A DNA stretch of 43,947 nt from a phage. This document shows positions 26,260-43,642 of this stretch, piece after piece. The translations under genes were made by a program, and so were the position numbers. Under the pieces are notes generated by a model, which was given only the letters and a program-made list of their open reading frames with translations, ran no database searches and had not been told where the DNA came from. The stretch's first letter is position 1. The number at the start of each line of letters is the position of its first letter. Where the stretch lies: sequence record PZ671982.1. The stretch is one strand, 5' to 3'.

Positions 26260-26306
26260 CGTGTTGTCTCCGGGTATTAAAAAGGGCGTCCAAACCGGAC
26301 ACCCTC

Positions 26307-26335
26307 AATATAATGCAACCAATATGATTATGCAA
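26307..26335 (-). promoter_or_regulatory. sigma70-like promoter (TTGCAT-17-TATATT) built from tandem ATTGGTTGCAT motifs
   Basis: Read on - strand, about 40 nt upstream of ATG 26259. Confidence 0.5.
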
Positions 26336-26340
26336 CCAAT

Positions 26341-26664: not shown

Positions 26665-27371
26665 TCTAAATTTTCCTCGTTAACCGCTATCGCGAAGCCG
26701 CGCGGGGTGAGCGACCTGATTAATTTGGTGCGGGCAGATTTGCCTCCGAGGCGACTATACTGCTTCGAGTAACCTTTTTCAACGAAAACAGGTTTCTTCT
26801 CGGGCATACGGAAGCCGTTTCCAGTCCATAAGCAGGTCAGCTTCGGATATGAATCGCGGGCGTTGATGTATTCAGGGAAGAGCGGGTGTACGTCATCCTC
26901 TGGCAGATATCCGCCATACTCCCACGGGTCAAACGAGTGGTCCGGCTTACGCCACTGGGTGGAAAGCACGCTGCGCGGATTCTCAATCATATATGGCACT
27001 TCGAAGAAATCACCCAGGTAAGCTGCGATCTTCGCGGTGCGCACCGCCTTAAGCTGGAAGGCTGGGTCGCGGGCGCGTTTGCGCGGGAAAGCTGGCGCAC
27101 CGCTAACCGCCAGATCCGTACACGGCGGGAATGCGTAAATGATATCCGGCGTGCCGAAATCGCCATTCATCGCGCGATCCACGAAGTCCAGGTCTATAAA
27201 CTCATTACGATAGCGAATGCCGCGACCATAGATCCGGTAGTCCAGGTAAGACCCGTGATCGGCTTCGGAGTAGTTGAAGCAATAACACTTATGCCCCATC
27301 TCGGCAGCACGCTCAATCATCAAGCCGCTGCCGTCAAACAATGACCAGATTGTCATTTTAGCAATAGTCAT
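26661..27371 (-). CDS. DNA (cytosine-5)-methyltransferase-like protein (compact)
   Basis: Motif I-like SLFDGSG, motif IV-like FPPC, motif VI-like IENP; only 236 aa, so target-recognition region is short or absent. Confidence 0.5.
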   Translation of the reverse strand: MTIAKMTIWSLFDGSGLMIERAAEMGHKCYCFNYSEADHGSYLDYRIYGRGIRYRNEFIDLDFVDRAMNGDFGTPDIIYAFPPCTDLAVSGAPAFPRKRARDPAFQLKAVRTAKIAAYLGDFFEVPYMIENPRSVLSTQWRKPDHSFDPWEYGGYLPEDDVHPLFPEYINARDSYPKLTCLWTGNGFRMPEKKPVFVEKGYSKQYSRLGGKSARTKLIRSLTPRGFAIAVNEENLE

Positions 27372-28792
27372 TTGCGCGCCTTTTTAGCTTTCATGTATTC
27401 CATTAGATCGTCCTGGATATCGCGCTTACTGTCGCGACGCTCGGCGACCAGTTCGTCCAGTGTGCCGCGCGCCTGGATAATGTAGACGAATACCGGACGA
27501 GGGTGTCCGGCTTGCATCTGGCGAACTGGCCCGATACGCTCCACGATCTGCGCAAAGTGCTCATAGTTCCAGGTGTCTGAGAAGATAGCAAGGTGGTGTC
27601 CACCATCCTGCAAGTTAAGGCCGTGACCCGCCGATGCCGGGTGTGCGAACATGATGGGGATCTCGCCCCTGTTCCACGCTTCCATATCCTTATTTCCTTG
27701 CTTTCCCTTACCCATCGCGACGCCGTGCGGGAATTTCTTCTTAAGACGTGCCAAGTCATGCTTGTACTGGTACGCGACGAGCAACGGTGCGCCGTTCAAC
27801 TCCTCCACGATACTTTCCAGCGCGTCCAGTTTAGCGTCGTGAATTTTCACCCATTCGTCGGTGCGCTCGCCGTCTTCGTCGACTTTATACACGGCCCCAG
27901 AAGCAAGCTGAAGGCACTTAATAGTCTTCGATGCCGCGTTCGCCGCTTCCACTGTTCCGCTTTCCAGTTCGGCAAATAGCTCGCTTTCAAACTGGTCGTA
28001 AATCTTGCGGGCTTTCTTCGGCAGATCCACAACAACCGGCGTATATATTGGCTTGTCACATCCGAAGTATTCAGCCGCGTCAACGGTGAGGGATACATCA
28101 GACAGGCGTTGTTGTATTTCTTTCTCGGAGTTCTTTAGCGGGGCGTGCTGCATAGTGAAGCTGCCAGGCTTAACAGGCTTGCTAATAAACCAGCGATCCG
28201 TAAATGCCGTATAGCTACTGCCGAGGCGTTCGCCACCATCGACAAACCACGTCTGACCCCATAAGTCTTTCAGCCCGTTGGGTGCGGGTGTGCCGGTAAG
28301 GTTAATCCAGCGCTTGACGTGCTTATGTGCGATCGCCGCCAGTGCGCGTGCGCGCTTACTACCCTGCTTGCTACGATAGCCTTTCAGCTTAGTCGATTCA
28401 TCGGCAACAACGACCGTAAAGGGCCACGCATCGCCGTAATAGTCTACCAGCCACTCAACCACATCGTAGTTAACACAAACCACGTTAGCGTCGCTCTCAA
28501 GCGCTGCGATACGGTCCTTCTCCGGCCCAGTGCCGTCTACGACCAGCAGGGATGAGAACCGCCATTTCTCCTGCTCCGGGGGCCAGGTGCCAGATGCAAC
28601 GCGCAGCGGGGCCAGCACCAGTACGCGGTCCTCCTGGTTGGACAGGATGCCAGTCTGGAACATTTTGTTTAACGCCCACATGGTCGCGCCAGTTTTACCC
28701 GACCCCATTGTCGCCCAAATATTACAACGCTTATGCTTGAGGATGAACGCGGTTATCAACTTCTGATATTCGCGACGTCTGAATCTTGCCAT
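27368..28792 (-). CDS. SNF2-family helicase
   Basis: Walker A GSGKTG, DEST box, SNF2-type LTGTPAPN motif; 474 aa. Confidence 0.7.
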   Translation of the reverse strand: MARFRRREYQKLITAFILKHKRCNIWATMGSGKTGATMWALNKMFQTGILSNQEDRVLVLAPLRVASGTWPPEQEKWRFSSLLVVDGTGPEKDRIAALESDANVVCVNYDVVEWLVDYYGDAWPFTVVVADESTKLKGYRSKQGSKRARALAAIAHKHVKRWINLTGTPAPNGLKDLWGQTWFVDGGERLGSSYTAFTDRWFISKPVKPGSFTMQHAPLKNSEKEIQQRLSDVSLTVDAAEYFGCDKPIYTPVVVDLPKKARKIYDQFESELFAELESGTVEAANAASKTIKCLQLASGAVYKVDEDGERTDEWVKIHDAKLDALESIVEELNGAPLLVAYQYKHDLARLKKKFPHGVAMGKGKQGNKDMEAWNRGEIPIMFAHPASAGHGLNLQDGGHHLAIFSDTWNYEHFAQIVERIGPVRQMQAGHPRPVFVYIIQARGTLDELVAERRDSKRDIQDDLMEYMKAKKARK

Positions 28793-28837
28793 ATCTCTAC
28801 GTCTCTCGAAAACGGCGGGCTTGTCCCGCCGTATTGA

Positions 28838-29011
28838 TTATTCTTGCGCTGCGCGGTAGCGGCGCTGCCGTTCGCGCTCTTTCTTATTGCGGCATGATTT
28901 GCACTCGGCACGATACCCATCGGGGCTGCGCGCAGTTTTGCCGGTGTATTTATGGAACTGGGACAGCGGTTTAACACAACCGCAATTACTGCAGCGTTTT
29001 TCTTCAATCAT
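28838..29011 (-). CDS. small zinc-ribbon protein (57 aa)
   Basis: ATG 29011 with RBS GAGGA; CSNCGC...CKSC four-cysteine pattern; basic C-terminus. Confidence 0.4.
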   Translation of the reverse strand: MIEEKRCSNCGCVKPLSQFHKYTGKTARSPDGYRAECKSCRNKKERERQRRYRAAQE

Positions 29012-29042
29012 TTCTAAAATCCTCGTTAGTGCTAACCTGCTC

Positions 29043-29071
29043 ACTATACTGTTAAGCGACCAATTCAGCAA
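29043..29071 (-). promoter_or_regulatory. sigma70-like promoter (TTGCTG-17-TATAGT) with ATTGGTTGC motif
   Basis: Read on - strand upstream of zinc-ribbon gene. Confidence 0.35.
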
Positions 29072-29330
29072 CCAATAAATCACAGTCGGCTATGTTGTCG
29101 ATAACGCGAACGTCCGCACCGCGGCGGGCCATTCGCTCATGTTCTCGTACCTGGTGCGGCTTCGGTTTGCCGCCGGGTCGCTTCACTTCGACGAAAACTA
29201 TCTTGCCGTTGATGATGATTATAAGGTCTGGCGCTCCCGCGCGCCCCTCCCATGCCACTTTACGGCAGAATCCGCCGACGGCTTTAACCAACTTCATAAG
29301 GTGACTTTGGATCTTGCCTTCTGGTGTCAT
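29052..29330 (-). CDS. VRR-NUC domain nuclease
   Basis: PDLIIIINGKIVFVEVKRPGGKPKPHQ matches the VRR-NUC PD-(D/E)xK signature; start ATG 29330 overlaps upstream stop (ATGA). Confidence 0.7.
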   Translation of the reverse strand: MTPEGKIQSHLMKLVKAVGGFCRKVAWEGRAGAPDLIIIINGKIVFVEVKRPGGKPKPHQVREHERMARRGADVRVIDNIADCDLLVAELVA

Positions 29331-29659
29331 TGTGCGTTCCTCACTCGGCATATCTCACCCGCAATATGCCCGATTAAATACGCCATAACCTCCTGGTTGT
29401 GGAGGTCCGGCGCAATCCCCCGGTCCCTCATGAGATTCATTGCTACGTGGGTGGCCTCATGAGGGACCGTGTGCATACTTGCGGTGTGTGGCATCCATAC
29501 AAGGCATGTTCCGTTGCCGAAAACGACGAAGGCATTGGCCTTAAAATCATCGATGCCAGGTTGATACCCGGTTATCCGCTTGCATTTTGCCGCCACCTCG
29601 TCAGCGCATGGCGAGACAAAAAATTCATATCGATAAACGTCTACTTTTACTTTTTTCAT
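29327..29659 (-). CDS. small HExxH zinc-metallopeptidase-like protein
   Basis: 110 aa from ATG 29659 (RBS AGGAAG); HEATH motif with nearby His residues; translationally coupled to VRR-NUC gene. Confidence 0.5.
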   Translation of the reverse strand: MKKVKVDVYRYEFFVSPCADEVAAKCKRITGYQPGIDDFKANAFVVFGNGTCLVWMPHTASMHTVPHEATHVAMNLMRDRGIAPDLHNQEVMAYLIGHIAGEICRVRNAQ

Positions 29660-29663
29660 AGTC

Positions 29664-31955
29664 TTACTTCCTGTAGCGATACATAACATCGCCCTCTGCG
29701 GCAAGCGGGAAGCCTTTCGCCCAAATAGGCAGGTCGCACATCAGCGCGCACAACTCCTCGGTTGTGTAGTCGTCAGTATCCGGCACTTCGGTGATCAATT
29801 CATCGTGTACGGACAGTACGATCTCATACCCCGCAGCTTCAACACCCGGCATGGACCATGCGAGGATATCGCGGCACAGCGCCTGCACGATGTTTTCCGT
29901 CAGTTTGCCGCCGTAGGTGTACTGGAATCCCCACTGGCGCGTCGTCTGATTCTCACCCTGATATTTAATGCGGGTGCTGGTGCGCTTCTTGCCGGTATCT
30001 TCGTCGATCTCGGTCGTCACTGACAGCGCAATGCCTGGATAACTCATGATGCGCCCCGACGGCAACTCAATTTTCAACCACCACCCCGCGGCGTTCGGAT
30101 CGTCGCGCTCCTCGTCGAAGGTAGGGTCGTGCTTCGCCTTCGTGCGGACTATCTTGAGCGCTTTCTTACCATCCGGGCGAACGTTCGCGCCAGCCCAGTA
30201 CGCTTTGCCTGGATTGCGGATTGCGCACAACACCGCGTCCTCAAGCTCTGCCCAAAAGGCTACCGTCTTCGGGTGAGCCTCGCGCCACATACGTTTAATC
30301 GCATCGCACGTAAGCCATACGTTTTTCGGCAGTATGTAAGTCGGGCGCTCGTCCTTCTTGCCAGGCTTCGGCGGTCGCTTCGCTTCGTTAATGCGGGCAT
30401 ATTCATAACCCCGTTTCGCCGCCGCCCAAATGTGATCGGGGAATGTGCCCTTCATCACTTCAGCCATCGCGTAAAGGTCGAGGCCCAGGTTTTTAGCGAA
30501 CTGCAAGAACGCCGCCACGCCACCACCATAGCCCAGGCCCAATTCGCACGCCTTACCGATCTGGCGTAAGTCTTTGCGGTTGGCTTTAATGTATTCCGGG
30601 TCAAGGCCGAACATCTTACCGGCAGTTTCACAATAGATATCGCGATCGGCCATAAACACCATGAGCGCTGTTTTCTCGCCAGCGATCCAGGCAAGGCCGC
30701 GCCCTTCCACGTTAGAATAGTCAGCTACAACAAACTTCTTACCCTTCGCCGGAATAATGCACCCGCGAACAGTCGAGGCCGTTAACTTCGATATGTCATA
30801 CGCCCAGTGCGCTGTCCCACGTAACAGGGAGTTGATGCCGTTGGTGAGCATGTGCGACCGCACCCAAAAGGAAATATCGCTCTCGCCTTCACGGCGTTTA
30901 ATCTTCCCTTCGTGGTCATCGCTATACTCGCCGCGTGCCAGGTTTTGCGGCTGAAATCCTTTGCCGGCCCAGCGCAGCGTGCGCTTTGCGCCGCCATACT
31001 GAAGACAACCACGGCGCCGACCATCGGCGGATAGGCCATTTACGAGCGGATTGTACTTAGTCGATGCCGTTGACGACGCACCGAGGCGCATCTCGATAAG
31101 CACTTTGCCTTCGTCTGGGAAGTCTGGATCTTCCAGCAGGTCGTTAAGCGTGGATTTCTGCGCGTTGTGGATTGTGAACGCAGGCGCGAGGTCGCGCAGT
31201 GCTGGCAGGAAGTCATTGCCGGTTAGCTTACCGCCGAAGCGCTCCCAGGCTTCCTCCTTCAATTCTTCCTTATGCGCCTGTACCGCTTTGATCGCGGCGT
31301 TCGCCAGGCCAACGTCCACATAGAAGCCACGGTCGTTGATCAACTGGTCAATAAGCAGGATTTCGTCTTCCTTCGGCGTGTTGCCCCAGTCCGGTATGCG
31401 CCAATAGACTTCCCTCATAGCGATGATATCCAACGCGGCATAGCGCAGGAATTTAGCCCACTCCTCTGGGTGCGTCTCGCGCGTGTAGCGGCGGATTTTG
31501 TAGGTTTTAGGGGTAGGCTTACAGAATCGTTTAATCAGCGCCTTGCCTGCCTTATCCTTCGCGTGATCTGCGTCAACGCCCAGCACCTGGCACTGCATAT
31601 CGAGGCTACCCGGCAACGCGTGTCGAAAGGCCATAATCATGGTATCTTCGATCTGGCACACTGGCAGGTCAATGCCCCACTTCTCGCGAATAACCAGGCG
31701 GTCAAACAGGAGGCCGTTAGCCATCACTATTTTTGCTTTCTTGCGGGAGACACGGCGGAGCGCCTTGCGCAGTTCCCGCGGCATTGTGGGGGACTCGGTG
31801 CAATCCCACGTCTGCACGCGGCCTTCGTCGATGGCGTATGTGCAAATCATAATCTCGGTAGTTGGGTGTTCCGCGTAGGCGTATGCGCCCACTTTCTTCA
31901 GGTCTACCGCGCTAAATGTTTCGGTGTCGAGAAACAGGCGTTCGAAGTCTTTCAT
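29664..31955 (-). CDS. DNA polymerase, family A, with 3'-5' exonuclease domain
   Basis: Exo I motif FLDTETFS; pol motif A VADYSNVEGR, motif B RKDLRQIGKACELGLGYGG, motif C VHDE; 763 aa. Confidence 0.9.
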   Translation of the reverse strand: MKDFERLFLDTETFSAVDLKKVGAYAYAEHPTTEIMICTYAIDEGRVQTWDCTESPTMPRELRKALRRVSRKKAKIVMANGLLFDRLVIREKWGIDLPVCQIEDTMIMAFRHALPGSLDMQCQVLGVDADHAKDKAGKALIKRFCKPTPKTYKIRRYTRETHPEEWAKFLRYAALDIIAMREVYWRIPDWGNTPKEDEILLIDQLINDRGFYVDVGLANAAIKAVQAHKEELKEEAWERFGGKLTGNDFLPALRDLAPAFTIHNAQKSTLNDLLEDPDFPDEGKVLIEMRLGASSTASTKYNPLVNGLSADGRRRGCLQYGGAKRTLRWAGKGFQPQNLARGEYSDDHEGKIKRREGESDISFWVRSHMLTNGINSLLRGTAHWAYDISKLTASTVRGCIIPAKGKKFVVADYSNVEGRGLAWIAGEKTALMVFMADRDIYCETAGKMFGLDPEYIKANRKDLRQIGKACELGLGYGGGVAAFLQFAKNLGLDLYAMAEVMKGTFPDHIWAAAKRGYEYARINEAKRPPKPGKKDERPTYILPKNVWLTCDAIKRMWREAHPKTVAFWAELEDAVLCAIRNPGKAYWAGANVRPDGKKALKIVRTKAKHDPTFDEERDDPNAAGWWLKIELPSGRIMSYPGIALSVTTEIDEDTGKKRTSTRIKYQGENQTTRQWGFQYTYGGKLTENIVQALCRDILAWSMPGVEAAGYEIVLSVHDELITEVPDTDDYTTEELCALMCDLPIWAKGFPLAAEGDVMYRYRK

Positions 31956-32122
31956 TGCTTAATCCTCACTACGGCGTCGGCGCTGCCGATCATGGAGAAG
32001 ATACCATCGGAAAGGGTTATCTCCTCGCCGTTGTTGCGAATCTCGGCAACGATGAAATACTCGCCCAGCATTTTGGACCATACCCGCATTCCGACTTTTA
32101 CTTCGCTGGCTTTAATACGCAT
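31952..32122 (-). CDS. small hypothetical protein (56 aa)
   Basis: ORF below the 60-aa table cutoff; stop overlaps polymerase ATG (ATGA); RBS AGGA. Confidence 0.35.
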   Translation of the reverse strand: MRIKASEVKVGMRVWSKMLGEYFIVAEIRNNGEEITLSDGIFSMIGSADAVVRIKQ

Positions 32123-32139
32123 TTTTCATTGTCCTATTA

Positions 32140-32165
32140 AAAAGCCCGCATTAAGCGGGCTTGAA
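32140..32165 (-). terminator. rho-independent terminator on - strand (GCCCGC-ttaat-GCGGGC + TTTTT)
   Basis: Read on - strand just downstream of SSB-like gene. Confidence 0.55.
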
Positions 32166-32180
32166 TAGTGGGCTTCGCCC

Positions 32181-32903
32181 TTAACGGCGGCGACGTTTAC
32201 GTGGTGCTTCGTCTTCGTCGTCTTCGTCCTCATCCTCATCGTCGCGCGGCTTACGACGTTTACGAGGTTTTTCATCTTCGTCATCATCGCGGCGCTTGGA
32301 CTTTTTGGACTTGCGCGGGCTTTCATCTTCGTCATCATCGCCCAGGTCTTCGTCGGAGCAAGAAGACCCGCCACCGCCGAAGGCTTCACCGTCATCACGG
32401 AAGCGTAAACCCAGCAAGCCAGCACCGAGTCCCTTGCCGTTGGTATTGTTCCACGCCCAAATATCCAAGGACACGTTGCAATAACAACCGGAGTAGATCT
32501 CCTGGCCTTCGATCTCGTCGCCTTCTACGGTCAGACCTTGTTCCGTCTGCTTCTCGCCGAGTGACGTTTGAATGACCGGCTGTTTGAACGATTTGGCGTT
32601 GATGTACAACATGCCTTCGAATTCTTCGGTTACTTCGTCGCGCTCGTCACCGTCGCGAACTGCGCATTCCTTAGAATCCTGGGCGTAGTGGCGGTCCATC
32701 CACTTATCAGCATTCTTCTCGGATTTCAGCTTGTCGGTGAGCACTGCGCGCGCTGCCGCTTCCACTTTGTCCACCTGCGGGTCTTCTTTATCAAGAAGAA
32801 TCACTGCGCGGTATGCCGGTTTTTGTCCATCCTGTTTAGGGGTATCACGTTCCCAAATTTTAAGGAAACATACGCGCACATTTTTCAGGTTGACTTTAGC
32901 CAT
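32181..32903 (-). CDS. ssDNA-binding-like protein with acidic/basic low-complexity C-terminal tail
   Basis: ATG 32903 (RBS GAGGA); C-terminal DDDEDE and KRR repeats; resembles phage SSB-like proteins that co-occur with Cas4-like nucleases. Confidence 0.5.
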   Translation of the reverse strand: MAKVNLKNVRVCFLKIWERDTPKQDGQKPAYRAVILLDKEDPQVDKVEAAARAVLTDKLKSEKNADKWMDRHYAQDSKECAVRDGDERDEVTEEFEGMLYINAKSFKQPVIQTSLGEKQTEQGLTVEGDEIEGQEIYSGCYCNVSLDIWAWNNTNGKGLGAGLLGLRFRDDGEAFGGGGSSCSDEDLGDDDEDESPRKSKKSKRRDDDEDEKPRKRRKPRDDEDEDEDDEDEAPRKRRRR

Positions 32904-32967
32904 TTTCCAATTCCTCATTTTACATGTATCGGGGTTATTGTAAGCCACCCCGTTCGGCTTGGTTGCT

Positions 32968-32996
32968 AATCTACTTGGTTGCGCCTAAGCGGTCAA
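32968..32996 (-). promoter_or_regulatory. sigma70-like promoter (TTGACC-17-TAGATT)
   Basis: Read on - strand about 60 nt upstream of ATG 32903; spacer contains CAACCAAG motif. Confidence 0.45.
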
Positions 32997-33007
32997 GCAC
33001 TTTTTTA

Positions 33008-34435
33008 TTAATTTTTTAAATCCTCGTCAGTAGCTTCAGACCACGCGGGGCGCGGGTCGTCGATAGGTGCTAACACCGGTTTAGCAGGTGCGCGCGTGAT
33101 TTTATCACACAGCTTCGCCCACACTTTCGGTTTTTCGTCCTTTAGCACCTTCTCGGCATCTGTTGGGCTGAGCAATGTTTCTTTGTACATCACATCGCGC
33201 TTGATCCGGGCCTTCGTGAATATTTCAATCACTTCGCTCTCGTCCGCCCACTTCCGGATCCCTTCCTTGCCTGCAACCATCTTGAGGCCCAGCGATTCGC
33301 CATCCCCAGCCATTACCGCTTTGAATACCGCGGACTCGATAGCCTTGATGTGCTGGCGCATTGCGTCCAGGCCTTCATATGCCTTGCGCAGTTCCGCCGC
33401 GCTCATAGAGCCGGGGGCCGCTTCTTTCTTGCCACGCTTCGCACGTCGGGCCGCCTTCCGGGCTTCGCGGGCCATATTGCGATCGTGGTTGGCGCATTCT
33501 TCCTCGGTCGCCACGCTCACGTCGTCTCCCAGGTCTTCGTCGGTTGCCGTTGGTGGTGTCATCGTGTCGATTGCAGCCTTCGCCCGGACGCTGCACTGGT
33601 CCGCAAATCTGCACCACTGGCACGCATCAACGCTGGGCCGGAAGTCAGCGCGGGTTAATCCCTTCTTGCCGCGGGCGTATGCATCGAGCGCGGCGATAGC
33701 ACGCTTGGACGCAAACTTCGCGAATATCTCCAGGGCTTCTACCGAAATATCCCACTCTGACGCCCCGCCGCAATACGGCTGGAAGATAACCAGGCGCACG
33801 GTCGTAATGTCGTACATGGTTTGCAGCTTGCGCAGCAGGCCGAGCGCGTACAACATAAGCTGTTTGTTTTCTTTTGCCTCGACCTTATGCCGCCCGGTCT
33901 TCAGGTCGCCCACTATCAGCATGTATGTTCCGTCGGTCTTTTTCATGACCATGACCATATCGGCAGTACCGAACGTTTTAATCCTGTTGCCGTCGATCTC
34001 GAAGCCTGGGTGAAGGACGCAGGTCAGATCGGCGCGCATCTCAAGCTGAACAAACTCCGCCACTTCGAGGAGCGGTCGCCAGTGGTCGATGTACGCGTCG
34101 CACTGTTTCACCATGTCGTCGTTGACCAGTACGCCGCCTTTCGGTGCTTTCGGGTGTGCCTTTACCGGTCCCTTGCCTTCGTTCTCGACGTAACATCCTT
34201 TATACGTCTTCGCGGTTATTTTCTTCTCACCGGCGATAATGCGGTTTAGCACCACTTCAGATACGGTGTGCGTACTCGTACCGTTAATCGCCGCTTGCCC
34301 GGATTCGTTCGGGATATCTTTTTCCACCACCAGGGCGGCGGGACACCCCATCCACTTTTTAGCACCGGATGGGCCAAGTAATGAGTGTTCCGTATTGCTG
34401 CCGGATTGCGTTTTGCGTTTTGGTTTAATCGCCAT
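33008..34435 (-). CDS. Cas4/RecB-like PD-(D/E)xK exonuclease with Fe-S cysteine cluster
   Basis: VGDLKTG...QLMLYALGL nuclease motifs; N-terminal Cys plus C-terminal CQWCRFADQC as in Cas4-type four-Cys clusters; 475 aa. Confidence 0.65.
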   Translation of the reverse strand: MAIKPKRKTQSGSNTEHSLLGPSGAKKWMGCPAALVVEKDIPNESGQAAINGTSTHTVSEVVLNRIIAGEKKITAKTYKGCYVENEGKGPVKAHPKAPKGGVLVNDDMVKQCDAYIDHWRPLLEVAEFVQLEMRADLTCVLHPGFEIDGNRIKTFGTADMVMVMKKTDGTYMLIVGDLKTGRHKVEAKENKQLMLYALGLLRKLQTMYDITTVRLVIFQPYCGGASEWDISVEALEIFAKFASKRAIAALDAYARGKKGLTRADFRPSVDACQWCRFADQCSVRAKAAIDTMTPPTATDEDLGDDVSVATEEECANHDRNMAREARKAARRAKRGKKEAAPGSMSAAELRKAYEGLDAMRQHIKAIESAVFKAVMAGDGESLGLKMVAGKEGIRKWADESEVIEIFTKARIKRDVMYKETLLSPTDAEKVLKDEKPKVWAKLCDKITRAPAKPVLAPIDDPRPAWSEATDEDLKN

Positions 34436-34612
34436 TATTCCACCCGTGTAAACTGGACAATTACATATTTCACATTTGCCAGGCCCGCTTTTTCGACTCG
34501 GCGCTTAACTTCATTTTGCGCGTCCACAAAGCAATTGCTTGCGTTGGTGTTTTCAACGATAAAAGAAGTGTGGTCATTTAATTCGTGGCATGTTGCCAGC
34601 ACGAAGAATTTC
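34436..34612 (-). CDS. small hypothetical protein (58 aa)
   Basis: ORF below table cutoff; RBS GGAG; stop overlaps next ATG (TAATG). Confidence 0.3.
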
Positions 34613-34613
34613 A

Positions 34614-34865
34614 TTATTTCGTCTCCCAGCGGTCAATTGTTTTTGCTTCGGATGCAACGGCGAAACGAACATATTCCAGATTGGAGTCCGCCCAAATATA
34701 AAAGTCGGGATTGGTAAAGGTGGTGCGCTTAATTTGCGCGGGGGTGTTGCGGCGTTTATCAATTACGGCAACGCGTGACTGAAAGCTGCCGATGCGTTCG
34801 AATAACCAATAATATGGGCGCTGGTCGCGGGAATCCACAGCCTCGATTAGCGTGAAGCGTGCCAT
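34614..34865 (-). CDS. hypothetical early protein (83 aa)
   Basis: ORF with RBS GAGGA, immediately downstream of an intra-operon terminator. Confidence 0.5.
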   Translation of the reverse strand: MARFTLIEAVDSRDQRPYYWLFERIGSFQSRVAVIDKRRNTPAQIKRTTFTNPDFYIWADSNLEYVRFAVASEAKTIDRWETK

Positions 34866-34885
34866 TGTCTCGTCCTCTAAAAATA

Positions 34886-34909
34886 GGCCCGCAGATTGGC
34901 GGGCCGGAA
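34886..34909 (-). terminator. rho-independent terminator/attenuator on - strand (GGCCCGC-caatct-GCGGGCC + TATTTTT)
   Basis: 7-bp perfect stem + T-rich tail between first early gene and rest of operon. Confidence 0.55.
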
Positions 34910-34913
34910 TATA

Positions 34914-35345
34914 TTAATCTTCCAGTTCGAAATAGGTTTCGACGATTTCTTTAAGATCTTTGTGGAAGTCTTCGACGTCGTCATCTTCCAGCTTGGCGAT
35001 TGATTTGATCTCGAACGCTTCCAGCAGGTCGTCAAATTCGTCGTTCGCATCGTCGTCATCACCGCCTGCGATAATCGCGGCATACTGTTTGATCTCGTCG
35101 CGCATCTCTGCCAGCGGATCGGCATCTTTCTTACCTTTGCCTTTCGCCGTGGCTTTTTTACCTTTCGCCGGTTTTTCGTCTTCGGCTTCTCCATCGTCGT
35201 CATCTTCTACGACTTCTTTTTTCGCTTTAGACGGCTTCTTGTCTTCCTGTTTACCAACGGCAGCGCCCACAGTTTCATAATGTTTAGCGATGGTTTCCAG
35301 TGCTACTACGCCGCGAGTAATCAGGTTTACGATTTGTTCAAACAT
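34914..35345 (-). CDS. highly acidic first-early protein (candidate DNA-mimic / anti-restriction)
   Basis: 143 aa from ATG 35345 (RBS GGAG); D/E runs DDDDGEAEDE, GGDDDDANDEFDD, EDDDVED; first gene after leftward early promoter. Confidence 0.55.
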   Translation of the reverse strand: MFEQIVNLITRGVVALETIAKHYETVGAAVGKQEDKKPSKAKKEVVEDDDDGEAEDEKPAKGKKATAKGKGKKDADPLAEMRDEIKQYAAIIAGGDDDDANDEFDDLLEAFEIKSIAKLEDDDVEDFHKDLKEIVETYFELED

Positions 35346-35541
35346 GGTATATCTCCGATTGGTTAAGTTTAGGTGTCGACCATTAACTTCGTCGGTGGCC
35401 TTAACATAGTGCCTGGTTGCGCGTTCTCCCTTTCGGGTAGTGGACCAGGTTATATAATCACGGTTGGGAATCCTGACACTTCGATCCGGCCCCTGCGTTG
35501 CCCCTCTCCAGTTTGCGTCCTGCATCCTGTCGACGAGGTGA

Positions 35542-35570
35542 ATATTAAATTGGTTGCAGAAGGGAGTCAA
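35542..35570 (-). promoter_or_regulatory. leftward early promoter (TTGACT-17-TAATAT)
   Basis: Hexamers read on - strand; about 190-nt leader to ATG 35345. Confidence 0.5.
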
Positions 35571-35684
35571 CAACTAATTTCAAAAAAAGCGCCGAGGCAA
35601 AATGCAACGGCGCTAACCAATAAGAGACAATGAGACGGGAATTATTATTACACGCGCGCGCGCCCGTTTCAATATCCAAAGGAG

Positions 35685-35746: not shown

Positions 35747-36175
35747 ATGAGCACAAACGAGACCTTAAATCGCTGGAACCATAAGAAATGGCCCCACCAA
35801 ATTAACCGCGCCACCGAGGATGATAATACCATCGCTTTCGGCGATATGGACGCGGACCCTATGACCCCTGAGCAAATAGCCGCCGATGTGCTGTCAATGG
35901 ACCGACATACGGCTTCGGAAATAATCGTTGCTCTGATAAACGAAATAAGCGGCAGCTATAACGAACTGAATGACCTGTACGCGGAGCTTGACCTGTTGAA
36001 AGGTGGTGCTATCGCAGCGGTGCGTAAATCCGAAGAGGCAGCACGCGAGATGGCTATCGCCCGCGAGAAATATATGCCTGTCGTTAAGCGCCTGCGTGCG
36101 GAAGGCTTGTCATGGAATCAGATCGCCGAGATGACTGGAATCAACCGTTCTACAATCCGCCAGTGGGCTAAATGA
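35747..36175 (+). CDS. HTH DNA-binding protein (putative regulator)
   Basis: 142 aa; C-terminal GLSWNQIAEMTGINRSTIRQWAK helix-turn-helix-like segment. Confidence 0.55.
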   Translation: MSTNETLNRWNHKKWPHQINRATEDDNTIAFGDMDADPMTPEQIAADVLSMDRHTASEIIVALINEISGSYNELNDLYAELDLLKGGAIAAVRKSEEAAREMAIAREKYMPVVKRLRAEGLSWNQIAEMTGINRSTIRQWAK

Positions 36176-36185
36176 GACGAAAACA

Positions 36186-38447
36186 ATGAAAAATTACTTA
36201 ATCGAGTTCGGCACCGTCGGCGGTAAGTACGGCAAGCGTGTTAAAAACCATTCTATGACGGAAGCCGAGTTTATGGAATACGTCGCGGATACAGTGGAGC
36301 TGTCCGGCGTTACCATTACCGGCGACGAGACTAAGAAAGAATACGATGCGGTGAAGGGTAAGGCGGAAGGCATTGTCGCCACCACTAAAGGCCGCGGTCG
36401 TCGCGCCACGGAAGTGGGTGTGCGTTCGGTTTTGTTCTACGATCTGGACCGCACGGACAACCGAACCCTGGGTCGTGTTAAGCGGGCATTTCGTAAATCC
36501 GGCCTGTCCCACGTCTACTACTCCACTACTGGCGACCGCCATCCGCTGAAGGGCGGCACACGTTGCGCACGTTTCCTGGTACTAACCAATAAACCGGTCG
36601 ACGTTGCCGATTTGGGGCGTGCGCAGTTCGCACTGTTACACGACCTCGGACTGGAAGACGTACCGTTTGACGATTGCACAAAAAACGTCAACAACCTGCA
36701 GTTCCTTCCGCATTCCGGATCTACCGTGTCTTGCCACTACGGCAAGCGCGCTAATGTGCGTCGTCTGCTTCGCCTGGCGGATAAGCTGGGCGTGGAGAAG
36801 GAGGAAGTACGCCGCGAGCTTACCCAGGGCGACGACGCAGTGGCGGACGGTATTCTGGACTGGTGCTTCCAGGCAGGATTCGAACCGCTGTCGTCCGGTC
36901 GTGGTTATGAAGTGCCATGCCCGAACGAACATCTGCATAGTGGCGAAGGGTCCACCGCTATCATGGTTAAGGATGGCGAGATCCGTTTCAAGTGTATGCA
37001 CACCGGCAACGAGTGTTGCTCGGAACTGAACAGACACCAGCACCTGGCGCTACGTCTTATCGGGATCCCGGACCACCTGAACGTCGAACCGCACAACATG
37101 TCACGTAAGCAGATTGCCGCCATCCTTCCGGGACTGGACGACGAGGAAGTGGAATCGTGCTATGCGCATATTGTTGATGCGGTTGGCGACGGCGAAGAAT
37201 ATGGCGTGTGCACCGATGCGGACCTGGATAACGAGCCGGTCGCACTATTCAGTAAGCACGACCCGATCATCGAAGGGCTGATAAACTTCAAATCGACCTG
37301 GTATATGGCGGGCGAGTCTAACATAGGTAAGTCCTTCTATGTGCTGGGGCAGATGGGCGCGGTTGCCGCTGGTATTCCGTTTGGCGGTGCGAAGGTAGTC
37401 CAGTCGCATTGCTTCTATTTTGATGCGGAAGGCGGCGAAGCCTCCAACCAGCGCAAAGAAGCATTGCAGATTAAATACGAGCACGACCTGGACAAGCTGC
37501 ACATTATCGACCTGCAGTCTCGCGGCTGGGATATCACCAGCAAGTCCGGTTTGCGCGAAGTTATCAGCTTTATCAACCGCACCGCTAATGGCGAACCGGT
37601 TGGCCTGGTGGCCTTCGACTCACTTAACCAGACGGTCGCGCTGCGGTCCGCCGATGCTAAACCGTTCGACGAGAACAACGCCAGCGATATGGGTGAAGTG
37701 GTCAAAGCGCTGAAAGCCATTGCGGAAAATACAGGTGGCAGTGCGGGCGTCATCCACCACCCAGCGAAAGGGGCAAACGGCAGCAGATCCCCGCGCGGGT
37801 CCGGTGCGCTTCATGGTGCTGTCGATTCAGCTTTCTTCCTGGAACAGCCGGACGACAACCAGCCGGGACAACTTAACCTGTACCACGAAAAATCACGTAA
37901 CGGCATCAAGCAAGCGCCGCGTGGCTTCGTCCTGCTCAAGTGCAAGGTGAAGGTGGATCTCCGCAAGTCAGAAGCGTTCGAGGCGCACCAGTCCACCAGC
38001 ACCGGGCCGGACTTCGGCGACGTCGTTGCCGGTTGGGACGTCAAACCAATTGCGTCCACGCCACGCGACGAGACTCTGTACCTCGTACCGGTCGCCCTGG
38101 CACCGTTCGCCATCGAACAGGCGAAGGCTGCAGGCAAAGCAGCAGTTAAGGAAGAAAACACCGCCGGTCCGCGCAACGAAAAAGAGAAAGTGCTTTATGC
38201 GGCCCTGGAAAAACTGATGGAAGATAACCCGGACCATACCGGATTCAGTAAATCGGCAATTGTACGCCAGGCTGGACTCGCTAAGGGTGGCACTTCGACG
38301 AAGGCAATCGACGATATGGTGGACCGCGGCGTGATTGGTTTCTATACAGATCCGCACACCGGGGCCATCTATGGGTCATCGAATTTAGTCATCAAATCGG
38401 ATATCCCCATAACGCTTTCGGCGACAGATGACGATCTGAAAGACTAA
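36186..38447 (+). CDS. primase / replicative helicase-like protein (C-terminal RecA-like ATPase)
   Basis: 753 aa; Cys/His cluster CPNEHLHSGEG...CMHTGNEC; Walker A MAGESNIGKS, Walker B-like LVAFDSLN; followed by iteron array. Confidence 0.65.
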   Translation: MKNYLIEFGTVGGKYGKRVKNHSMTEAEFMEYVADTVELSGVTITGDETKKEYDAVKGKAEGIVATTKGRGRRATEVGVRSVLFYDLDRTDNRTLGRVKRAFRKSGLSHVYYSTTGDRHPLKGGTRCARFLVLTNKPVDVADLGRAQFALLHDLGLEDVPFDDCTKNVNNLQFLPHSGSTVSCHYGKRANVRRLLRLADKLGVEKEEVRRELTQGDDAVADGILDWCFQAGFEPLSSGRGYEVPCPNEHLHSGEGSTAIMVKDGEIRFKCMHTGNECCSELNRHQHLALRLIGIPDHLNVEPHNMSRKQIAAILPGLDDEEVESCYAHIVDAVGDGEEYGVCTDADLDNEPVALFSKHDPIIEGLINFKSTWYMAGESNIGKSFYVLGQMGAVAAGIPFGGAKVVQSHCFYFDAEGGEASNQRKEALQIKYEHDLDKLHIIDLQSRGWDITSKSGLREVISFINRTANGEPVGLVAFDSLNQTVALRSADAKPFDENNASDMGEVVKALKAIAENTGGSAGVIHHPAKGANGSRSPRGSGALHGAVDSAFFLEQPDDNQPGQLNLYHEKSRNGIKQAPRGFVLLKCKVKVDLRKSEAFEAHQSTSTGPDFGDVVAGWDVKPIASTPRDETLYLVPVALAPFAIEQAKAAGKAAVKEENTAGPRNEKEKVLYAALEKLMEDNPDHTGFSKSAIVRQAGLAKGGTSTKAIDDMVDRGVIGFYTDPHTGAIYGSSNLVIKSDIPITLSATDDDLKD

Positions 38448-38550
38448 ATTTTGCGCGCATTGGTTGCCATTTTGAGTGTTTTTAACTGGTCGCATTGGTT
38501 GCCGTGTAGTGTAAATATAGTGAATAGTTATGCAGTTTTATTGCATAAAG

Positions 38551-38710
38551 TAAGCGGGACAAAAAGCGGGACAGACCAGGGGCGGGACAAAGCGGGACAG
38601 CACCCCTGTCCCGCCCCGGATGACGCGGCCTGGAGAGGAGCGGGACAGGCGGGACAAACCCCAGTCTTTCAGACTAGACGGGGGTCAGTTGGCCCCCCTC
38701 GTCTGAGACT
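38551..38710 (+). repeat. iteron array B: 6 direct + 1 inverted GCGGGACA copies and terminal imperfect hairpin; flanked by inverted CGCATTGGTTGCC repeats and AT-rich tracts
   Basis: Read directly; closely similar to 11268..11426. Confidence 0.8.
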
Positions 38711-38869
38711 GCATAAAATCCTGGATTGCATAATACACGGCAGCACATTGGAAATCGCGGTCGTCGCTGAACTAGGCAACCAATGCGAGTTGCAGAACGG
38801 TTGGTGAAAATGCAGTTTGCAGTCACAGCAGATAGCGATCGACTTTTTCATGCGCGTGATTAATATTGG

Positions 38870-38898
38870 TTGCATCCATGCCCGCACCCTGCTATATT
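38870..38898 (+). promoter_or_regulatory. sigma70-like promoter (TTGCAT-17-TATATT) from tandem ATATTGGTTGCA motifs
   Basis: About 30 nt upstream of RBS AAGAGGA and ATG 38927. Confidence 0.5.
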
Positions 38899-38926
38899 GG
38901 TTGCACACCAACAAGAGGACTGAACG

Positions 38927-39232
38927 ATGAAAGCATTAATCTGGAATTACACAATGGCGGTGGCGAAGCTGTATGAAGCGAAGCACACAGACGGCAACGC
39001 AGACAACGCGCGCCAGGCTGTTATCCTTGCACAGCAGGGAATCATGAACGCGTTCGACGATATGTTTGCCAGCCTGGACGAACTGGAACCGCTTCGCGTG
39101 GCAATCTGCGGATATGCGATGGCGTTTGCCCGTGAGCGCCTTGCGTATCGCTTCGGGATCGGTGAGACGGCAGCGACAAACATCGCCCGGATTGCAGCCC
39201 AACGCGAGCTATTCGCTCAGCTTGCGAAATAA
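38927..39232 (+). CDS. hypothetical protein (101 aa)
   Basis: ORF with strong RBS. Confidence 0.5.
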   Translation: MKALIWNYTMAVAKLYEAKHTDGNADNARQAVILAQQGIMNAFDDMFASLDELEPLRVAICGYAMAFARERLAYRFGIGETAATNIARIAAQRELFAQLAK

Positions 39233-39651: not shown

Positions 39652-40244
39652 AATTACTATTCCGCCGTAAAGCAGACGGCAAAATCCTGAGACCAATACA
39701 GACCCTTGAGGCACACGTCCGCTTGCACCACGCCGCGAGTGATCGTGTCTGGTGGGCGAACAAGGCTAAGCTGCCGGAGAAATACGATATTGTCACGCAT
39801 GATATCGAGCGCGGCGATGTGCTGCGTGATATTCGCGACGGCAGTATGTGGATCGTCGAGTATGTCGGGCTTCATGGCCTGCGTATGCAAAACCGCAAGG
39901 ATGGCGTAGCCGGTATGACTTACTTCGGCCTTGTCAACTACGAACGAGTGGGCCGCAAATACAGCCTTCGCGAACGCAAGCCGCATGAGCGAGCGAGCGC
40001 CATAGCGGACGCAGTTAACCGCGTAACGCATGACGTGGCGCAGAAGACGCGTGTGGATTTCACCCGCTACGACTCCAACCAGGTGCAAGCGAAGATGGGC
40101 CGCGCCGTACACCAAATCGTCAATCGCTTTGATGCCGTGACGAACGCACAGCACCATGCGCAGGAATATGGCGTTGGATTCATCCGGGTGGAACGAGACG
40201 GCAGCATGAAAGCCATCGACCCGCGCTCGGTGATTCTGAAATGA
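39648..40244 (+). CDS. hypothetical protein (198 aa)
   Basis: ORF coupled to upstream small ORF. Confidence 0.5.
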   Translation: MKLLFRRKADGKILRPIQTLEAHVRLHHAASDRVWWANKAKLPEKYDIVTHDIERGDVLRDIRDGSMWIVEYVGLHGLRMQNRKDGVAGMTYFGLVNYERVGRKYSLRERKPHERASAIADAVNRVTHDVAQKTRVDFTRYDSNQVQAKMGRAVHQIVNRFDAVTNAQHHAQEYGVGFIRVERDGSMKAIDPRSVILK

Positions 40245-40412
40245 ATAAATTCGATTTAGTGCGGGATAAATTAACCCGCGATTTGTATCTGGTTGTAGCC
40301 GTAACCCATTACCAGGTTAAACTACGTAATGTGGCTACTAAGCAAGCGCACTGGGCACCACGCCATAACCCACATCTGGAGGTCGTATCCCGTGTCGGCT
40401 GTGATTCGTGAT
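40242..40412 (+). CDS. small hypothetical protein (56 aa)
   Basis: ATG overlapping upstream stop (ATGA); below table cutoff. Confidence 0.3.
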
Positions 40413-40532
40413 TTGTTGGTGCATAACCGCTTTGAAATAGACGGTCGGGTATTTCGCAATTACTTCGTGGCGCGTGCATGGGCGCGCCATATTGGCAAAC
40501 CGGAAGGGGCAATTAGATGTTACACGATGTGA
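40392..40532 (+). CDS. small hypothetical protein (46 aa, GTG start)
   Basis: RBS GGAGG 8 nt before GTG 40392; alternative to the longer 40329 start. Confidence 0.25.
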   Translation: MSAVIRDLLVHNRFEIDGRVFRNYFVARAWARHIGKPEGAIRCYTM

Positions 40533-40804
40533 TTTATTGGTTTGGTTTGATCTGCGGGCGGTGCCTGCTTACCGCGGTGCTGTTGGGCAGCCTGATGTTC
40601 GTCGTATGGCCTGCAGTGGAAGCCGCCAGCATTACCCGCATGACGTTCGAGATCTACAAGCGCCGTGGAATAACGGAGCACCCGACAAGGCTTCGGATGT
40701 GGTGGCTGTGGTATCGGGATATGATAGGCGGTCGAACATTCGAAGCCGTCCGATCATCCGGGTGGGAGTGGAAAGGCGTCGGCAAGTGGTCAATTTTCGA
40801 TTAA
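40517..40804 (+). CDS. small membrane protein (95 aa)
   Basis: RBS GAAGGGG; N-terminal hydrophobic stretch WFGLICGRCLLTAVLLGSLMFVVW; immediately upstream of holin. Confidence 0.45.
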   Translation: MLHDVIYWFGLICGRCLLTAVLLGSLMFVVWPAVEAASITRMTFEIYKRRGITEHPTRLRMWWLWYRDMIGGRTFEAVRSSGWEWKGVGKWSIFD

Positions 40805-42499: not shown

Positions 42500-43642
42500 A
42501 TGCACCCGCAAACTAAAATTACCGATGAGCAATTGATCGCAGAAATTCAGGCAGGGACTACGGTTAAAGAGATTGCGAAGAAGTACGGGATCGCCCTGCG
42601 CAATGTCTATATGCGCAAAGCCCGCCTATCAAAAAAGGGGATTGGTCACGGTAATGATGCCGTGATCCGTAAGCGCGTTGCCGATGGCTTCGGGGTTAAG
42701 CGCGTATCGGCCCTGGTGCGCGGCAATGGCGAAGAGGTCATGTCGTGGGTCATCACTGAGCAGGACAAGGAGCGCCAACTCGAAGCTATGCGCGCTGTTG
42801 TCGATGGTATGAACAGCGAAATCACACCGGCAGCACCGGTAAGCGCCCCGCCAGTCCCGATCCAGGCACTTGACTTGCTCAACCTGTACACCGTGTCAGA
42901 CTTCCATCTGGGTATGCTGGCATGGGGCGAGGAGACTGGCGAAGATTGGGATATGGCGATCGCCGAAGACCTGTTTTACCGCTGGTTTGTCGAAGCCTTC
43001 GCACGCGCACCAGACGCAGGCACTGCCGTGATCAATATCCTCGGCGATATGGCCCACTTTGACAGCCTTGATGCCGTCACACCAGCAAGCGGTCACGTAC
43101 TGGACGCCGACACCCGCTACCAGAAACTGGTCCGATACATGATTCGCATGGTGCGCAACGTCGTCGAACTGGCGCTGCAAAAACACCACAAAGTCAAACT
43201 GCTAATCGTCCAGGGAAATCATGACGAGTCGGGTATGATTTGGCTGGCTGAGATGTTCAATACTCTGTACGAGAACGAGCCGCGCGTCGATGTGGATACG
43301 TCCCCGGACGTCTACAAAATTGTGCAGCACGGAAAGACCACGCTATTCTTTCACCACGGGCACAAAGCGCGATTCGATGTTATCGAGCAGGTTATGATCG
43401 CTAAATTCCGACAGGCGTTCGGGTCTAGCGAGTACAGCTATGCACATGTAGGCCACTTGCACCACCAGAAGATTGTAGAATCCCGCAACATGATTGTTGA
43501 GCAGCACCGGACACTCGCGGCGAAAGACGCATACGCCAGCCGCGGCGGTTGGATGTCCGGTCGTAGCGCCAATGTAATTACCTACAGCGCCAACTACGGC
43601 GAAGTGGCGCGCTTAACCATTAGCCCGGAAATGTTGAAATGA
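42500..43642 (+). CDS. HTH domain fused to Mre11/SbcD-like calcineurin-type metallophosphoesterase
   Basis: N-terminal HTH-like TVKEIAKKYGIALRNVYMRKARL; C-terminal motifs SDFHLG, GDMAHFD, GNHDE, HHGH, GHLHH; immediately upstream of small ORF and terminase. Confidence 0.6.
   Translation: MHPQTKITDEQLIAEIQAGTTVKEIAKKYGIALRNVYMRKARLSKKGIGHGNDAVIRKRVADGFGVKRVSALVRGNGEEVMSWVITEQDKERQLEAMRAVVDGMNSEITPAAPVSAPPVPIQALDLLNLYTVSDFHLGMLAWGEETGEDWDMAIAEDLFYRWFVEAFARAPDAGTAVINILGDMAHFDSLDAVTPASGHVLDADTRYQKLVRYMIRMVRNVVELALQKHHKVKLLIVQGNHDESGMIWLAEMFNTLYENEPRVDVDTSPDVYKIVQHGKTTLFFHHGHKARFDVIEQVMIAKFRQAFGSSEYSYAHVGHLHHQKIVESRNMIVEQHRTLAAKDAYASRGGWMSGRSANVITYSANYGEVARLTISPEMLK

Follow-up and report, generated by a model that had tools for sequence, protein, structure and literature searches.

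The DNA analyzed here (sequence record PZ671982.1, one strand of 43,947 nt, referred to below as the window) is the complete genome of a Dhillonvirus (HK578/SO-1-like), a virulent Escherichia coli siphophage. The locus under study, region B, is the gap at 38448-38926 between the stop codon of the primase-helicase gene (38445-38447) and the next ATG (38927), and it contains an array of the short repeat GCGGGACA. We take it to be noncoding, since 1-nt indels between close relatives contradict the 118-aa and 81-aa open reading frames (ORFs) listed there. In the vicinity of region B, the identity is 90 to 93% with PEC14, HK578, SSL-2009a, and more than 150 further records. An earlier reading of the same DNA (the original prediction) had proposed region B as the best candidate for an origin of replication in the window. 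The two genes preceding the gap and the elements within it are as follows.

35747-36175, plus strand: gene of a 142-aa HTH_23/sigma region-4-like protein (Pfam HTH_23, 6.3e-7), directly upstream of the primase-helicase gene
36186-38447, plus strand: primase-helicase gene, 753 aa (PHROG 3228, "replicative helicase-primase"; Pfam AAA_25, 2.8e-19, the sole Pfam match)
38456-38468 and 38491-38503, plus strand: CGCATTGGTTGCC, two direct copies of the dispersed motif ATTGGTTGC, mostly conserved in 15 Dhillonvirus genomes
38504-38553, plus strand: AT-rich tract (GC 0.30), with TGAATAGTTATGCA at 38521-38534 and a degenerate copy at 38542-38554, 21 nt on
38554-38656, plus strand: iteron array, with four direct copies of GCGGGACA, one inverted, a GC-rich spacer, and two adjacent direct copies
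38662-38711, no strand assigned: long imperfect GC-rich hairpin without a T-run behind it; stem kept and loop variable in the genus
38725-38744, plus strand: conserved element ATTGCATAATACACGGCAGC; ACACGGCAGC and ACACGGCAAC recur past the hairpin in other genera
38775-38787, minus strand: inverted copy of CGCATTGGTTGCC, almost invariant among the 15 genomes
38863-38905, plus strand: two copies of ATATTGGTTGCA and a promoter read by eye (-35 TTGCAT, 38870-38875; -10 TATATT, 38893-38898) that would drive the operon from 38927

All the elements named in the original prediction were found in the sequence, with slightly shifted coordinates. The two direct copies of CGCATTGGTTGCC are present, ca. 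5 bases from the positions that had been given (38461 and 38497), and the inverted flanking repeat placed around 38776 is GGCAACCAATGCG at 38775-38787. The AT-rich tract also held up (GC 0.30 at 38500-38549 versus ca. 0.54 for the window), and the iteron block that follows it has a GC content of 0.62 to 0.76. As predicted, there are six direct copies of GCGGGACA (starting at 38554, 38566, 38582, 38592, 38640, and 38649) and an inverted one (38607-38614), the first of the seven being 107 nt past the primase-helicase stop codon. The repeat is found 16 times in the window (2.09 expected; 0 of 100 shuffles reach 16), and 14 of these copies lie within only two arrays, seven in region B and seven in another locus, array A, described below. 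The imperfect hairpin had been called the same as that of array A, and 38662-38711 is indeed nearly identical to 11378-11426, where the loop is one base shorter; as DNA, it folds with -12.6 to -14.3 kcal/mol (z of -2.8 to -3.8). The tandem ATATTGGTTGCA promoter stood in part. Both copies exist (38863 and 38894), but their promoter status is an interpretation that relies on a by-eye reading and did not pass the consensus scan: the sigma-70-like arrangement (TTGCAT, 17-nt spacer, TATATT, 38870-38898) is mostly conserved in the 15 genomes, with TAGATT as the -10 in several. Consensus promoter and terminator scans gave nothing in region B (38300-39000 in the case of terminators), and only chance-level stems in region A.

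Among the 15 Dhillonvirus genomes, the repeat cores are nearly invariant and the spacers variable, with the last two copies toggling between 8 and 9 bp apart. The hairpin has kept its stem, including three compensatory pairs, and has a variable loop. The first CGCATTGGTTGCC copy is missing in one of the 15, and some genomes have an extra one on a 54-nt insertion. This insertion, right behind the primase-helicase stop codon (L007, L011, L012, L016, and L020; L numbers are our handles for compared sequences), duplicates CGCATTGGTTGCC and also adds a palindrome of the form gatatgggaattcccatatc (ca. 20 nt).

The DNA located 3' of homologous primase-helicase genes was gathered from IMG/VR, GenBank phages, and public assemblies, and a common layout directly after the gene was found to recur in at least 10 lineages. 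Behind the stop codon, there are copies of a promoter-associated motif and the AT-rich TGAATAGTTATGCA element, followed by three to four direct short repeats plus one or two inverted ones, a spacer, and two adjacent direct repeats 8 to 9 bp apart; then come a long imperfect GC-rich hairpin, a TTATTCA...ACACGGCAGC element, and a sigma-70-like promoter with the next gene. The layout is present in Dhillonvirus (15 genomes), L060, L064, L065, L066, and the contig-truncated L061 and L067 (proteins 66 to 70% identical), and also in GRNsp27, L024, L026, and L030 (proteins 37 to 44% identical), with variant forms in eiAU-183, L062, and L063. A hairpin of other sequence sits at the same place in six further lineages (seven in all; -21 to -32 kcal/mol as RNA). 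What differs among lineages is the core of the short repeat, which has been switched in every copy at once with the layout unchanged:

CGGGACA: Dhillonvirus, L017, L060, L066
GTGTGGCA: L061, L064
GTGTGCCA: L065
GGTGCCA: L067
GGGGGAGA: Salmonella phage GRNsp27
AGGGATAA: L024
TCCGACAG: L026
GGGGATGA: L030
CGCCCCG: Edwardsiella phage eiAU-183
TCGCAA: L063

Such a coordinated replacement of an 8-mer in a conserved layout argues that the repeats are sites of a coevolving, sequence-specific DNA-binding protein, and it speaks against RNA structure, a terminator, or chance. A G-quadruplex reading of the repeats was dropped because those of several lineages are not G-rich.

The same comparison bears on the idea that the locus works as a plus-strand RNA, whether by ending the primase-helicase transcript (factor-dependent termination or attenuation), by put-like antitermination, or as a small RNA that would sponge an RNA-binding protein with its repeated GGGACA motifs. 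It is true that the module is oriented like the flanking genes in both of its copies, that the inverted repeats and the hairpin fold stably (z of ca. -3), and that these regions carry annotated terminators in HK578 and CS16. However, an intrinsic terminator is contradicted by the lack of a T-run behind the hairpin on either strand in any lineage, and none was detected by the scan of 38300-39000. The core is swapped wholesale among lineages and the array has no conserved secondary structure; its copies are both direct and inverted, and the inverted one drifts from T to C with no compensating change in the partner direct copy. In six of nine sequences, the minus-strand fold of the hairpin is the more stable by over 1 kcal/mol, and the eiAU repeats seem, by eye, to have the opposite orientation. 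Rfam 15 gave no match at gathering score in the whole window, and at E values of up to 1 only a meaningless microRNA match (E value of 0.36). An RNA element is thus an improbable explanation.

The 14-mer TGAATAGTTATGCA is nearly invariant across genera whose primase-helicases are just 37 to 48% identical to that of the window, and it often appears twice, 21 bp apart (window, 38521-38534; L003, 18060-18095; right after the primase-helicase stop codon in L024, L026, and L030). This conservation suggests that the 14-mer is read by some host factor or by a conserved replisome component, and the tract at 38504-38553 is a candidate DNA unwinding element or binding site of a conserved factor. By-eye comparison with DnaA boxes and with IHF and CRP sites gave no convincing consensus match. 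In L064, L065, L067, L062, and eiAU, an AT-rich GATTTATAAGGAG element lies between the two repeat groups, the arrangement known from staphylococcal pathogenicity islands (SaPIs). The hairpin at 38662-38711 is, in turn, a candidate single-strand initiation or assembly signal.

We also scanned a bacterial genome collection with GCGGGACANNNNGCGGGACA (two spaced GCGGGACA copies). Most of the matches were due to chance in GC-rich genomes because the pattern is too unspecific. The densest cluster (L166, 3316-3632) was found in a 45-kb phage-like contig of a gammaproteobacterial metagenome-assembled genome (MAG; JANQIS010000038.1), with nine CGGGACA/TGTCCCG copies around an AT-rich center of ca. 110 nt. 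This array begins ca. 20 nt past the stop codon of a gene whose 791-aa product combines Cro-HTH, Prim-Pol, PriCT_2, and DUF5906 domains. The product has no detectable homology to the primase-helicase of the window, and the array is an independent instance of the same design with the same repeat core. Incidentally, in a Rhodocyclales MAG (JAYTVW010000027.1; L172, 3656-3926), seven GCGGGACA/CTGTCCCGCC copies lie between an apparent tRNA 3' end and a tyrosine-integrase gene; an integrative element could use these as arm-type or origin sites.

The protein encoded just before the array was modeled with AlphaFold (mean predicted local distance difference test [pLDDT] score of 74). It has a RepA-like RecA-fold helicase domain (ca. 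aa 355-590), a predicted winged helix (ca. aa 665-740), and an acidic tail (DDDLKD). With Foldseek, the closest structure to the helicase domain was RSF1010 RepA (1G8Y; E value of 2.5e-10, TM score of 0.69, root mean square deviation of 3.1 over 242 columns). Modeled separately, ca. aa 665-740 gave a winged helix with a core pLDDT of 80 to 90, for which the Foldseek matches were all of the MarR, MepR, ArsR, or linker-histone type and weak (E values of 0.03 to 0.4). The N-terminal domain (230 residues) is well modeled, and sequence and profile searches of Pfam and PDB returned no match for it; its FYDLD and TTGDRH motifs resemble, in a by-eye reading, those of archaeo-eukaryotic primases (AEPs). 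A Cys/His-rich segment (ca. aa 245-278) was also noticed by eye, and zinc binding is only possible. The tail, SATDDDLKD (window 38418-38444), ends in an acidic D-L-x-D/E/N that is conserved in all genera and recalls the tails through which T7 gp4 and gp2.5 contact the polymerase; the phage also has a T7-like polymerase and a gp2.5-like single-strand-binding protein (SSB). The first ca. 75 residues (36186-36410) are mosaic, with 44% identity between the window and SO-1, compared to at least 96% for residues 226 to 675, and the HK578 protein is 98.5% identical over its full length.

If the primase-helicase reads the repeats, the candidate region would be the C-terminal winged helix, and not the N-terminal domain for which footprinting had been suggested originally. 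The C-terminal 160 residues are the fastest-evolving part of the protein and diverge in step with the repeat class: identity in this domain is 83 to 94% in pairs that share a repeat and 62% or less in pairs with different ones. L060 and L061, for instance, are 95% identical in residues 231 to 350, where the Cys/His-rich motif lies, and 52% in the C-terminal domain. In an alignment of nine sequences, 14 columns separate all five CGGGACA-type proteins from the other four, 8 of them in residues 611 to 747, and they include S690 and T703, with which helices 2 and 3 of the winged helix begin; control groupings of comparable sister pairs gave five and two such columns, and six further controls gave zero to two. 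The covariation of this domain with repeat type is modest and no more than suggestive. The helix-turn-helix (HTH) protein encoded upstream, the other binder suggested originally, is probably not the reader. Its helix-turn-helix (SWAMIAExTGINVSTVRSW) is the same in L060, L061, L064, L065, L066, and L067, i.e., across four different repeat cores, and as far as covariation tells, this candidate is ruled out. Among the leftward early genes of L060 and L061, checked for another covarying reader, none stands out.

The second locus, array A, lies in the tail operon, between the stop codon of the tail-chaperone frameshift product (11108) and the ATG of the tape-measure gene (11495). Its features are as follows.

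11114-11372, plus strand: array A, three units with a total of ca. 14 CGGGACA-type copies, units 1 and 2 being palindromic; in 14 of 14 complete Dhillonvirus contigs examined
11246-11430 (A) and 38530-38715 (B), plus strand: module of ca. 185 nt common to both loci by alignment, with AT-rich element, iterons, and hairpin (11378-11426 in A)
11450-11458, plus strand: TGATACAAT, extended -10-like by eye, upstream of the tape-measure gene; invariant in 14 aligned array-A sequences

The similarity between the two loci that had been noticed originally is therefore a common module, with the 8-mer and the hairpin shared. The A and B modules of one genome have an identity of 0.81, barely above the 0.79 found between genomes, and patchy shared variants hint at occasional gene conversion between A and B. 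Every Dhillonvirus examined has array A, and eiAU has a version of its own. GRNsp27 lacks it, its five GGGGGAGA copies being confined to region B. From this distribution, region B appears to be ancestral and array A a lineage-specific duplicate. Just upstream, the tail assembly chaperone gene (10433-10795) ends with a canonical -1 slippery heptamer, A AAA AAC, at 10786-10792; as the -1 frame is open from 10792 to a TAA at 11106-11108, array A begins a mere few bases past the stop codon of the frameshift product.

Short direct and inverted repeats are typical of pac sites, e.g., that of P1, and the arrays might be sites of another kind, recognized by the small terminase for packaging or used for recombination or resolution. 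In favor of this, the linear GenBank record of eiAU-183 (L004) starts and ends inside the equivalent of array A (42900-43017 and 1-221). Nevertheless, these ends are in repeated GCAACCAAC sequence and look like an assembly break; they are probably not a physical end. In addition, Dhillonviruses are predicted headful packagers whose genomes assemble as circles (PMC9022532), the two arrays are ca. 5 kb and ca. 11 kb from the terminase genes, and across genera the array follows the primase-helicase gene and not the terminase gene. Packaging or recombination is, to us, a very improbable function.

Origins of similar design have been established experimentally. In SaPIs, the origin (ori) consists of 6 to 12 short iterons immediately downstream of rep, around an AT-rich center, and they are read by the C-terminal winged helix of the self-loading Rep (PMC9371898). 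Region B resembles it (PMC9371898) in having seven short iterons in both orientations just 3' of the helicase-initiator ORF, an AT-rich segment, and a repeat specific to the element. The iteron-reading winged helix of SaPI has as its counterpart here a predicted one with weak matches (E values of 0.03 to 0.4). The SaPI AT-rich region is central, with at least two iterons on each side in opposite directions, whereas the window has its tract on the 5' side of the array, and a central position is seen only in sister lineages. Unlike SaPI Rep, likened to superfamily 3 (SF3) and SF6/MCM-like helicases (PMC9371898), the helicase of the window is of the AAA_25 type, RecA fold and RepA-like. Further differences are the additional 50-nt hairpin, the repetition of the module at a distance of 27 kb, and the nature of the element, a virulent phage and not a satellite.

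The alpha protein of phage P4 combines primase, helicase, and a C-terminal winged-helix origin binder in one polypeptide, and its octamer repeats are both direct and inverted. They are found at two sites, ori and crr, where the winged helix of the alpha primase-helicase reads them (summarized in PMC4234260). Our phage is similar in having octamer iterons at two separate cis sites, A and B, with a common 8-mer and the 185-nt module. These are 27 kb apart, compared to ca. 4.5 kb for ori and crr, and the alpha protein, with its Toprim primase and D5-type SF3 helicase, is not homologous to the window protein, which has no such Pfam domains and a RecA-fold helicase. We know of no hairpin element described for P4.

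The plasmid RSF1010, source of the closest helicase structure (1G8Y, a hexameric RepA-type helicase), has an oriV with iterons, an AT-rich region, and GC-rich single-strand initiation (ssi) hairpins that serve as primase signals after unwinding by RepA (PMC8567376). Region B likewise has repeats, an AT-rich region, and a GC-rich hairpin. RSF1010 employs three separate proteins (RepA, RepB', and RepC) and 3.5 iterons of ca. 20 bp, in contrast to seven irregularly spaced 8-bp repeats here, and its two ssi hairpins are on opposite strands, while each module of the window has a single hairpin, for which the minus strand gives the more stable fold in most lineages. Finally, replication of the archaeal plasmid pRN1 requires a stem-loop downstream of orf904, the gene of a primase-helicase with a winged helix, and the authors of that work pointed out similar stem-loops after phage primase-helicase genes, also in Bordetella phage BIP-1 (PMC4234260). 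The order in the window is the same as in pRN1, with the gene of a small DNA-binding protein, then that of the primase-helicase with its predicted winged helix, and then a 3' stem-loop whose structure is kept over seven lineages; pRN1 differs in being archaeal and without iterons, in its SF3 helicase, and in a stem-loop of ca. 100 nt. The region B system would work like the origins of SaPI, P4, pRN1, and RSF1010 but is a member of none, since homology-based tests of membership fail.

Taken with these parallels, region B appears to be an iteron origin with a self-loading primase-helicase, located directly 3' of the gene of its own initiator-helicase, a reading to which we assign a probability of roughly 0.55. 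We favor it because origins established by experiment have counterparts of its fixed position behind the helicase-initiator gene, of its AT-rich element, and of its conserved hairpin. The choice of region B as the best origin candidate in the window is strengthened by the layout conserved behind the primase-helicase gene in distant lineages, by repeats that behave as protein-recognition units, and by the established origins of like design, but one serious rival stands. A phage DNA-binding protein could coat GCGGGACA in A and B and thereby insulate, repress, or time the downstream promoters or block read-through, with replication starting elsewhere. We regard this regulatory role as possible, if less likely. 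Both arrays are 50 to 200 bp upstream of promoter-like elements (38870-38898 for B; TGATACAAT, 11450-11458, invariant in the genus, for A), region B divides the early HTH/primase-helicase pair from the transcription unit of small, lysis, and structural genes, lineage-specific repeat switching would suit any sequence-specific binder, and an array within the tail operon is easier to explain as gene-expression control. The GC-rich relatives L021-L023, L025, L027, and L028 also fit, as they keep the same protein, C-terminal domain included, with no repeat cluster within 2.5 kb and with terminators and convergent genes downstream. On the other hand, near-consensus sigma-70 promoters (by eye) follow the module in GRNsp27, L024, and L026, 80 to 150 bp from the array, and such promoters would need no array upstream to activate them. 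An operator usually overlaps its promoter, and the motif in that position here is a different one, TTGGTTGC; the adjoining HTH regulator does not covary with the repeats; and a regulatory array would explain neither its own constant place behind the helicase gene nor the presence of an AT-rich element and a conserved hairpin.

The proximity of both arrays to promoter-like elements and the array-free GC-rich relatives also count against an origin, and they are not alone. The case is made only by comparative anatomy and analogy. The GCGGGACA spacings in region B are irregular (12, 16, 10, and 9 bp) and out of helical phase, and in the window phage the AT-rich tract lies beside the array, on its 5' side, with a GC-rich inner spacer, and not between the repeat groups. 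The primase identity of the N-terminal domain comes from database names and motifs seen by eye. As for the proposed reader, Dhillonvirus and L060 share the repeat, yet their C-terminal domains are just 59 to 66% identical; a four-sequence test of L061-specific changes along the primase-helicase found no enrichment in any domain; and in the predicted recognition helix the window is closer to L061, with a different repeat, than to L060, with the same one. A second origin within the tail operon has no obvious rationale. Lastly, the GC skew along the window tracks the direction of transcription, reaching its lowest value near 35.6 kb, where the divergent early promoters lie, and gives no independent origin signal.

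If region B is nevertheless an origin, then binding, melting, priming, and origin activity, as read from how the region is built and conserved, from the switched repeats, and from the protein folds, might proceed as follows. A sequence-specific protein would bind the seven GCGGGACA sites, the favored one being the primase-helicase through its C-terminal winged-helix region. Its oligomerization on the array would open the neighboring AT-rich TGAATAGTTATGCA tract, and the RepA-like helicase would load itself on the opened DNA. Unwinding could then extrude the GC-rich hairpin, preferably on the minus strand, to signal assembly or priming to the primase portion of the primase-helicase, after which the T7-like DNA polymerase and the gp2.5-like SSB would take over. 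Array A (11114-11430), a duplicate of the core module, may be a second origin or a distant cis partner like the crr of P4; a lytic phage with two origins is possible, as in ICP1 (PMC7145576). The most elaborate version would have a single polypeptide take on all three replication functions of RSF1010, as initiator, RepA-like helicase, and hairpin-directed primase, with A and B communicating like P4 ori and crr and with origin specificity reprogrammed among closely related phages by matched swaps of the C-terminal domain and every iteron; we advance it tentatively, as rather doubtful in its entirety.

The motif ATTGGTTGC is the core of both the "flanking repeat" and the "tandem promoter" of the original prediction, and it has 12 exact copies in the window (0.53 expected). 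They are mainly intergenic pairs that overlap sigma-70-like hexamers in variable register, i.e., as the -35 TTGCAT, within the spacer, or just past a TATATT -10, at 5522(-), 24655(-), 26322/26339(-), and 38866/38897(+). The sites of the motif are as follows.

5515-5537, minus strand: ATTGGTTGC motif site
21607, minus strand: ATTGGTTGC motif site
24648-24667: ATTGGTTGC motif site
26315-26340, minus strand: ATTGGTTGC motif site
29056-29076, minus strand: ATTGGTTGC motif site
32958-32982, plus strand: ATTGGTTGC motif site
35549, plus strand: ATTGGTTGC motif site
38456-38905: ATTGGTTGC motif sites of region B

Kindred forms (GCAACCAAC, CAGCCAACA, GCTGCCAAC, and GCGGCCAAC) were found in other genera, and judging from its placement, ATTGGTTGC looks like a genome-wide promoter/operator motif. 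There are, then, two separate motif systems, the GCGGGACA repeats confined to arrays A and B and ATTGGTTGC across the genome. The description of CGCATTGGTTGCC and TTGGTTGCA as flanks particular to this origin region has to be given up, as they are copies of the genome-wide promoter-associated motif. The TTGGTTGC motifs around the array would belong to this separate system, as operator-like, promoter-associated sites of the flanking transcription units.

Regarding the genomic setting, the plus strand carries the genes from 35747 on, past the record ends and as far as 23437, in the order HTH protein, primase-helicase, small genes, lysis, terminase, head, and tail. The replication genes on the minus strand (23464-35573) include those of the T7-like DNA polymerase, the gp2.5-like SSB, an exonuclease, and an SNF2 helicase. 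The first gene of this leftward early operon, 34914-35345(-), codes for a product (PHROG 3127) that is lysine-rich and then strongly acidic (GGDDDDA..DEFDDLLE) and that varies greatly in length among relatives (134 to 170 aa). A BLAST search with region B as the query found no matches in 5,426 complete E. coli genomes or in 72,556 plasmids, and hence no prophage, satellite, or plasmid copy. The GenBank entry GQ502199 (Sodalis phage SO-1) already marks both loci, as repeat regions A (11214-11597) and B (40178-40657), with the wording [quoted passage not shown] They are the same two loci as those of the window, orthologous and ca. 90% identical. Both have therefore been flagged in GenBank since 2009, as an annotation note only, and a search of a literature library found neither these repeats or motifs nor any Dhillonvirus origin described; the comparative evidence is new.

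Dhillonviruses are among the most often isolated phages of E. coli and are part of the BASEL collection. By its anatomy and by analogy, region B is probably a new variant of a well-known kind of origin. If so, the design with a self-loading helicase and iterons 3' of its gene would extend from SF3-type enzymes (SaPI, P4, and pRN1) to a RecA-fold, RepA-like helicase, and the primase-helicase gene plus ca. 270 bp of cis elements would make up a compact replicon. Several natural and mutually distinct specificities would be available (CGGGACA, GTGTGGCA, GTGTGCCA, GGTGCCA, and others), useful for phage engineering, for orthogonal replicons, and for interpreting defense systems that sense replication. 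Should the swaps of C-terminal domain and iterons also be real, these phages would offer a natural series of origin/initiator pairs, each self-contained and orthogonal to the others. If its role is regulatory after all, the array marks the boundary between the early and late parts of the genome. The natural series of specificity switches makes the origin reading directly testable.

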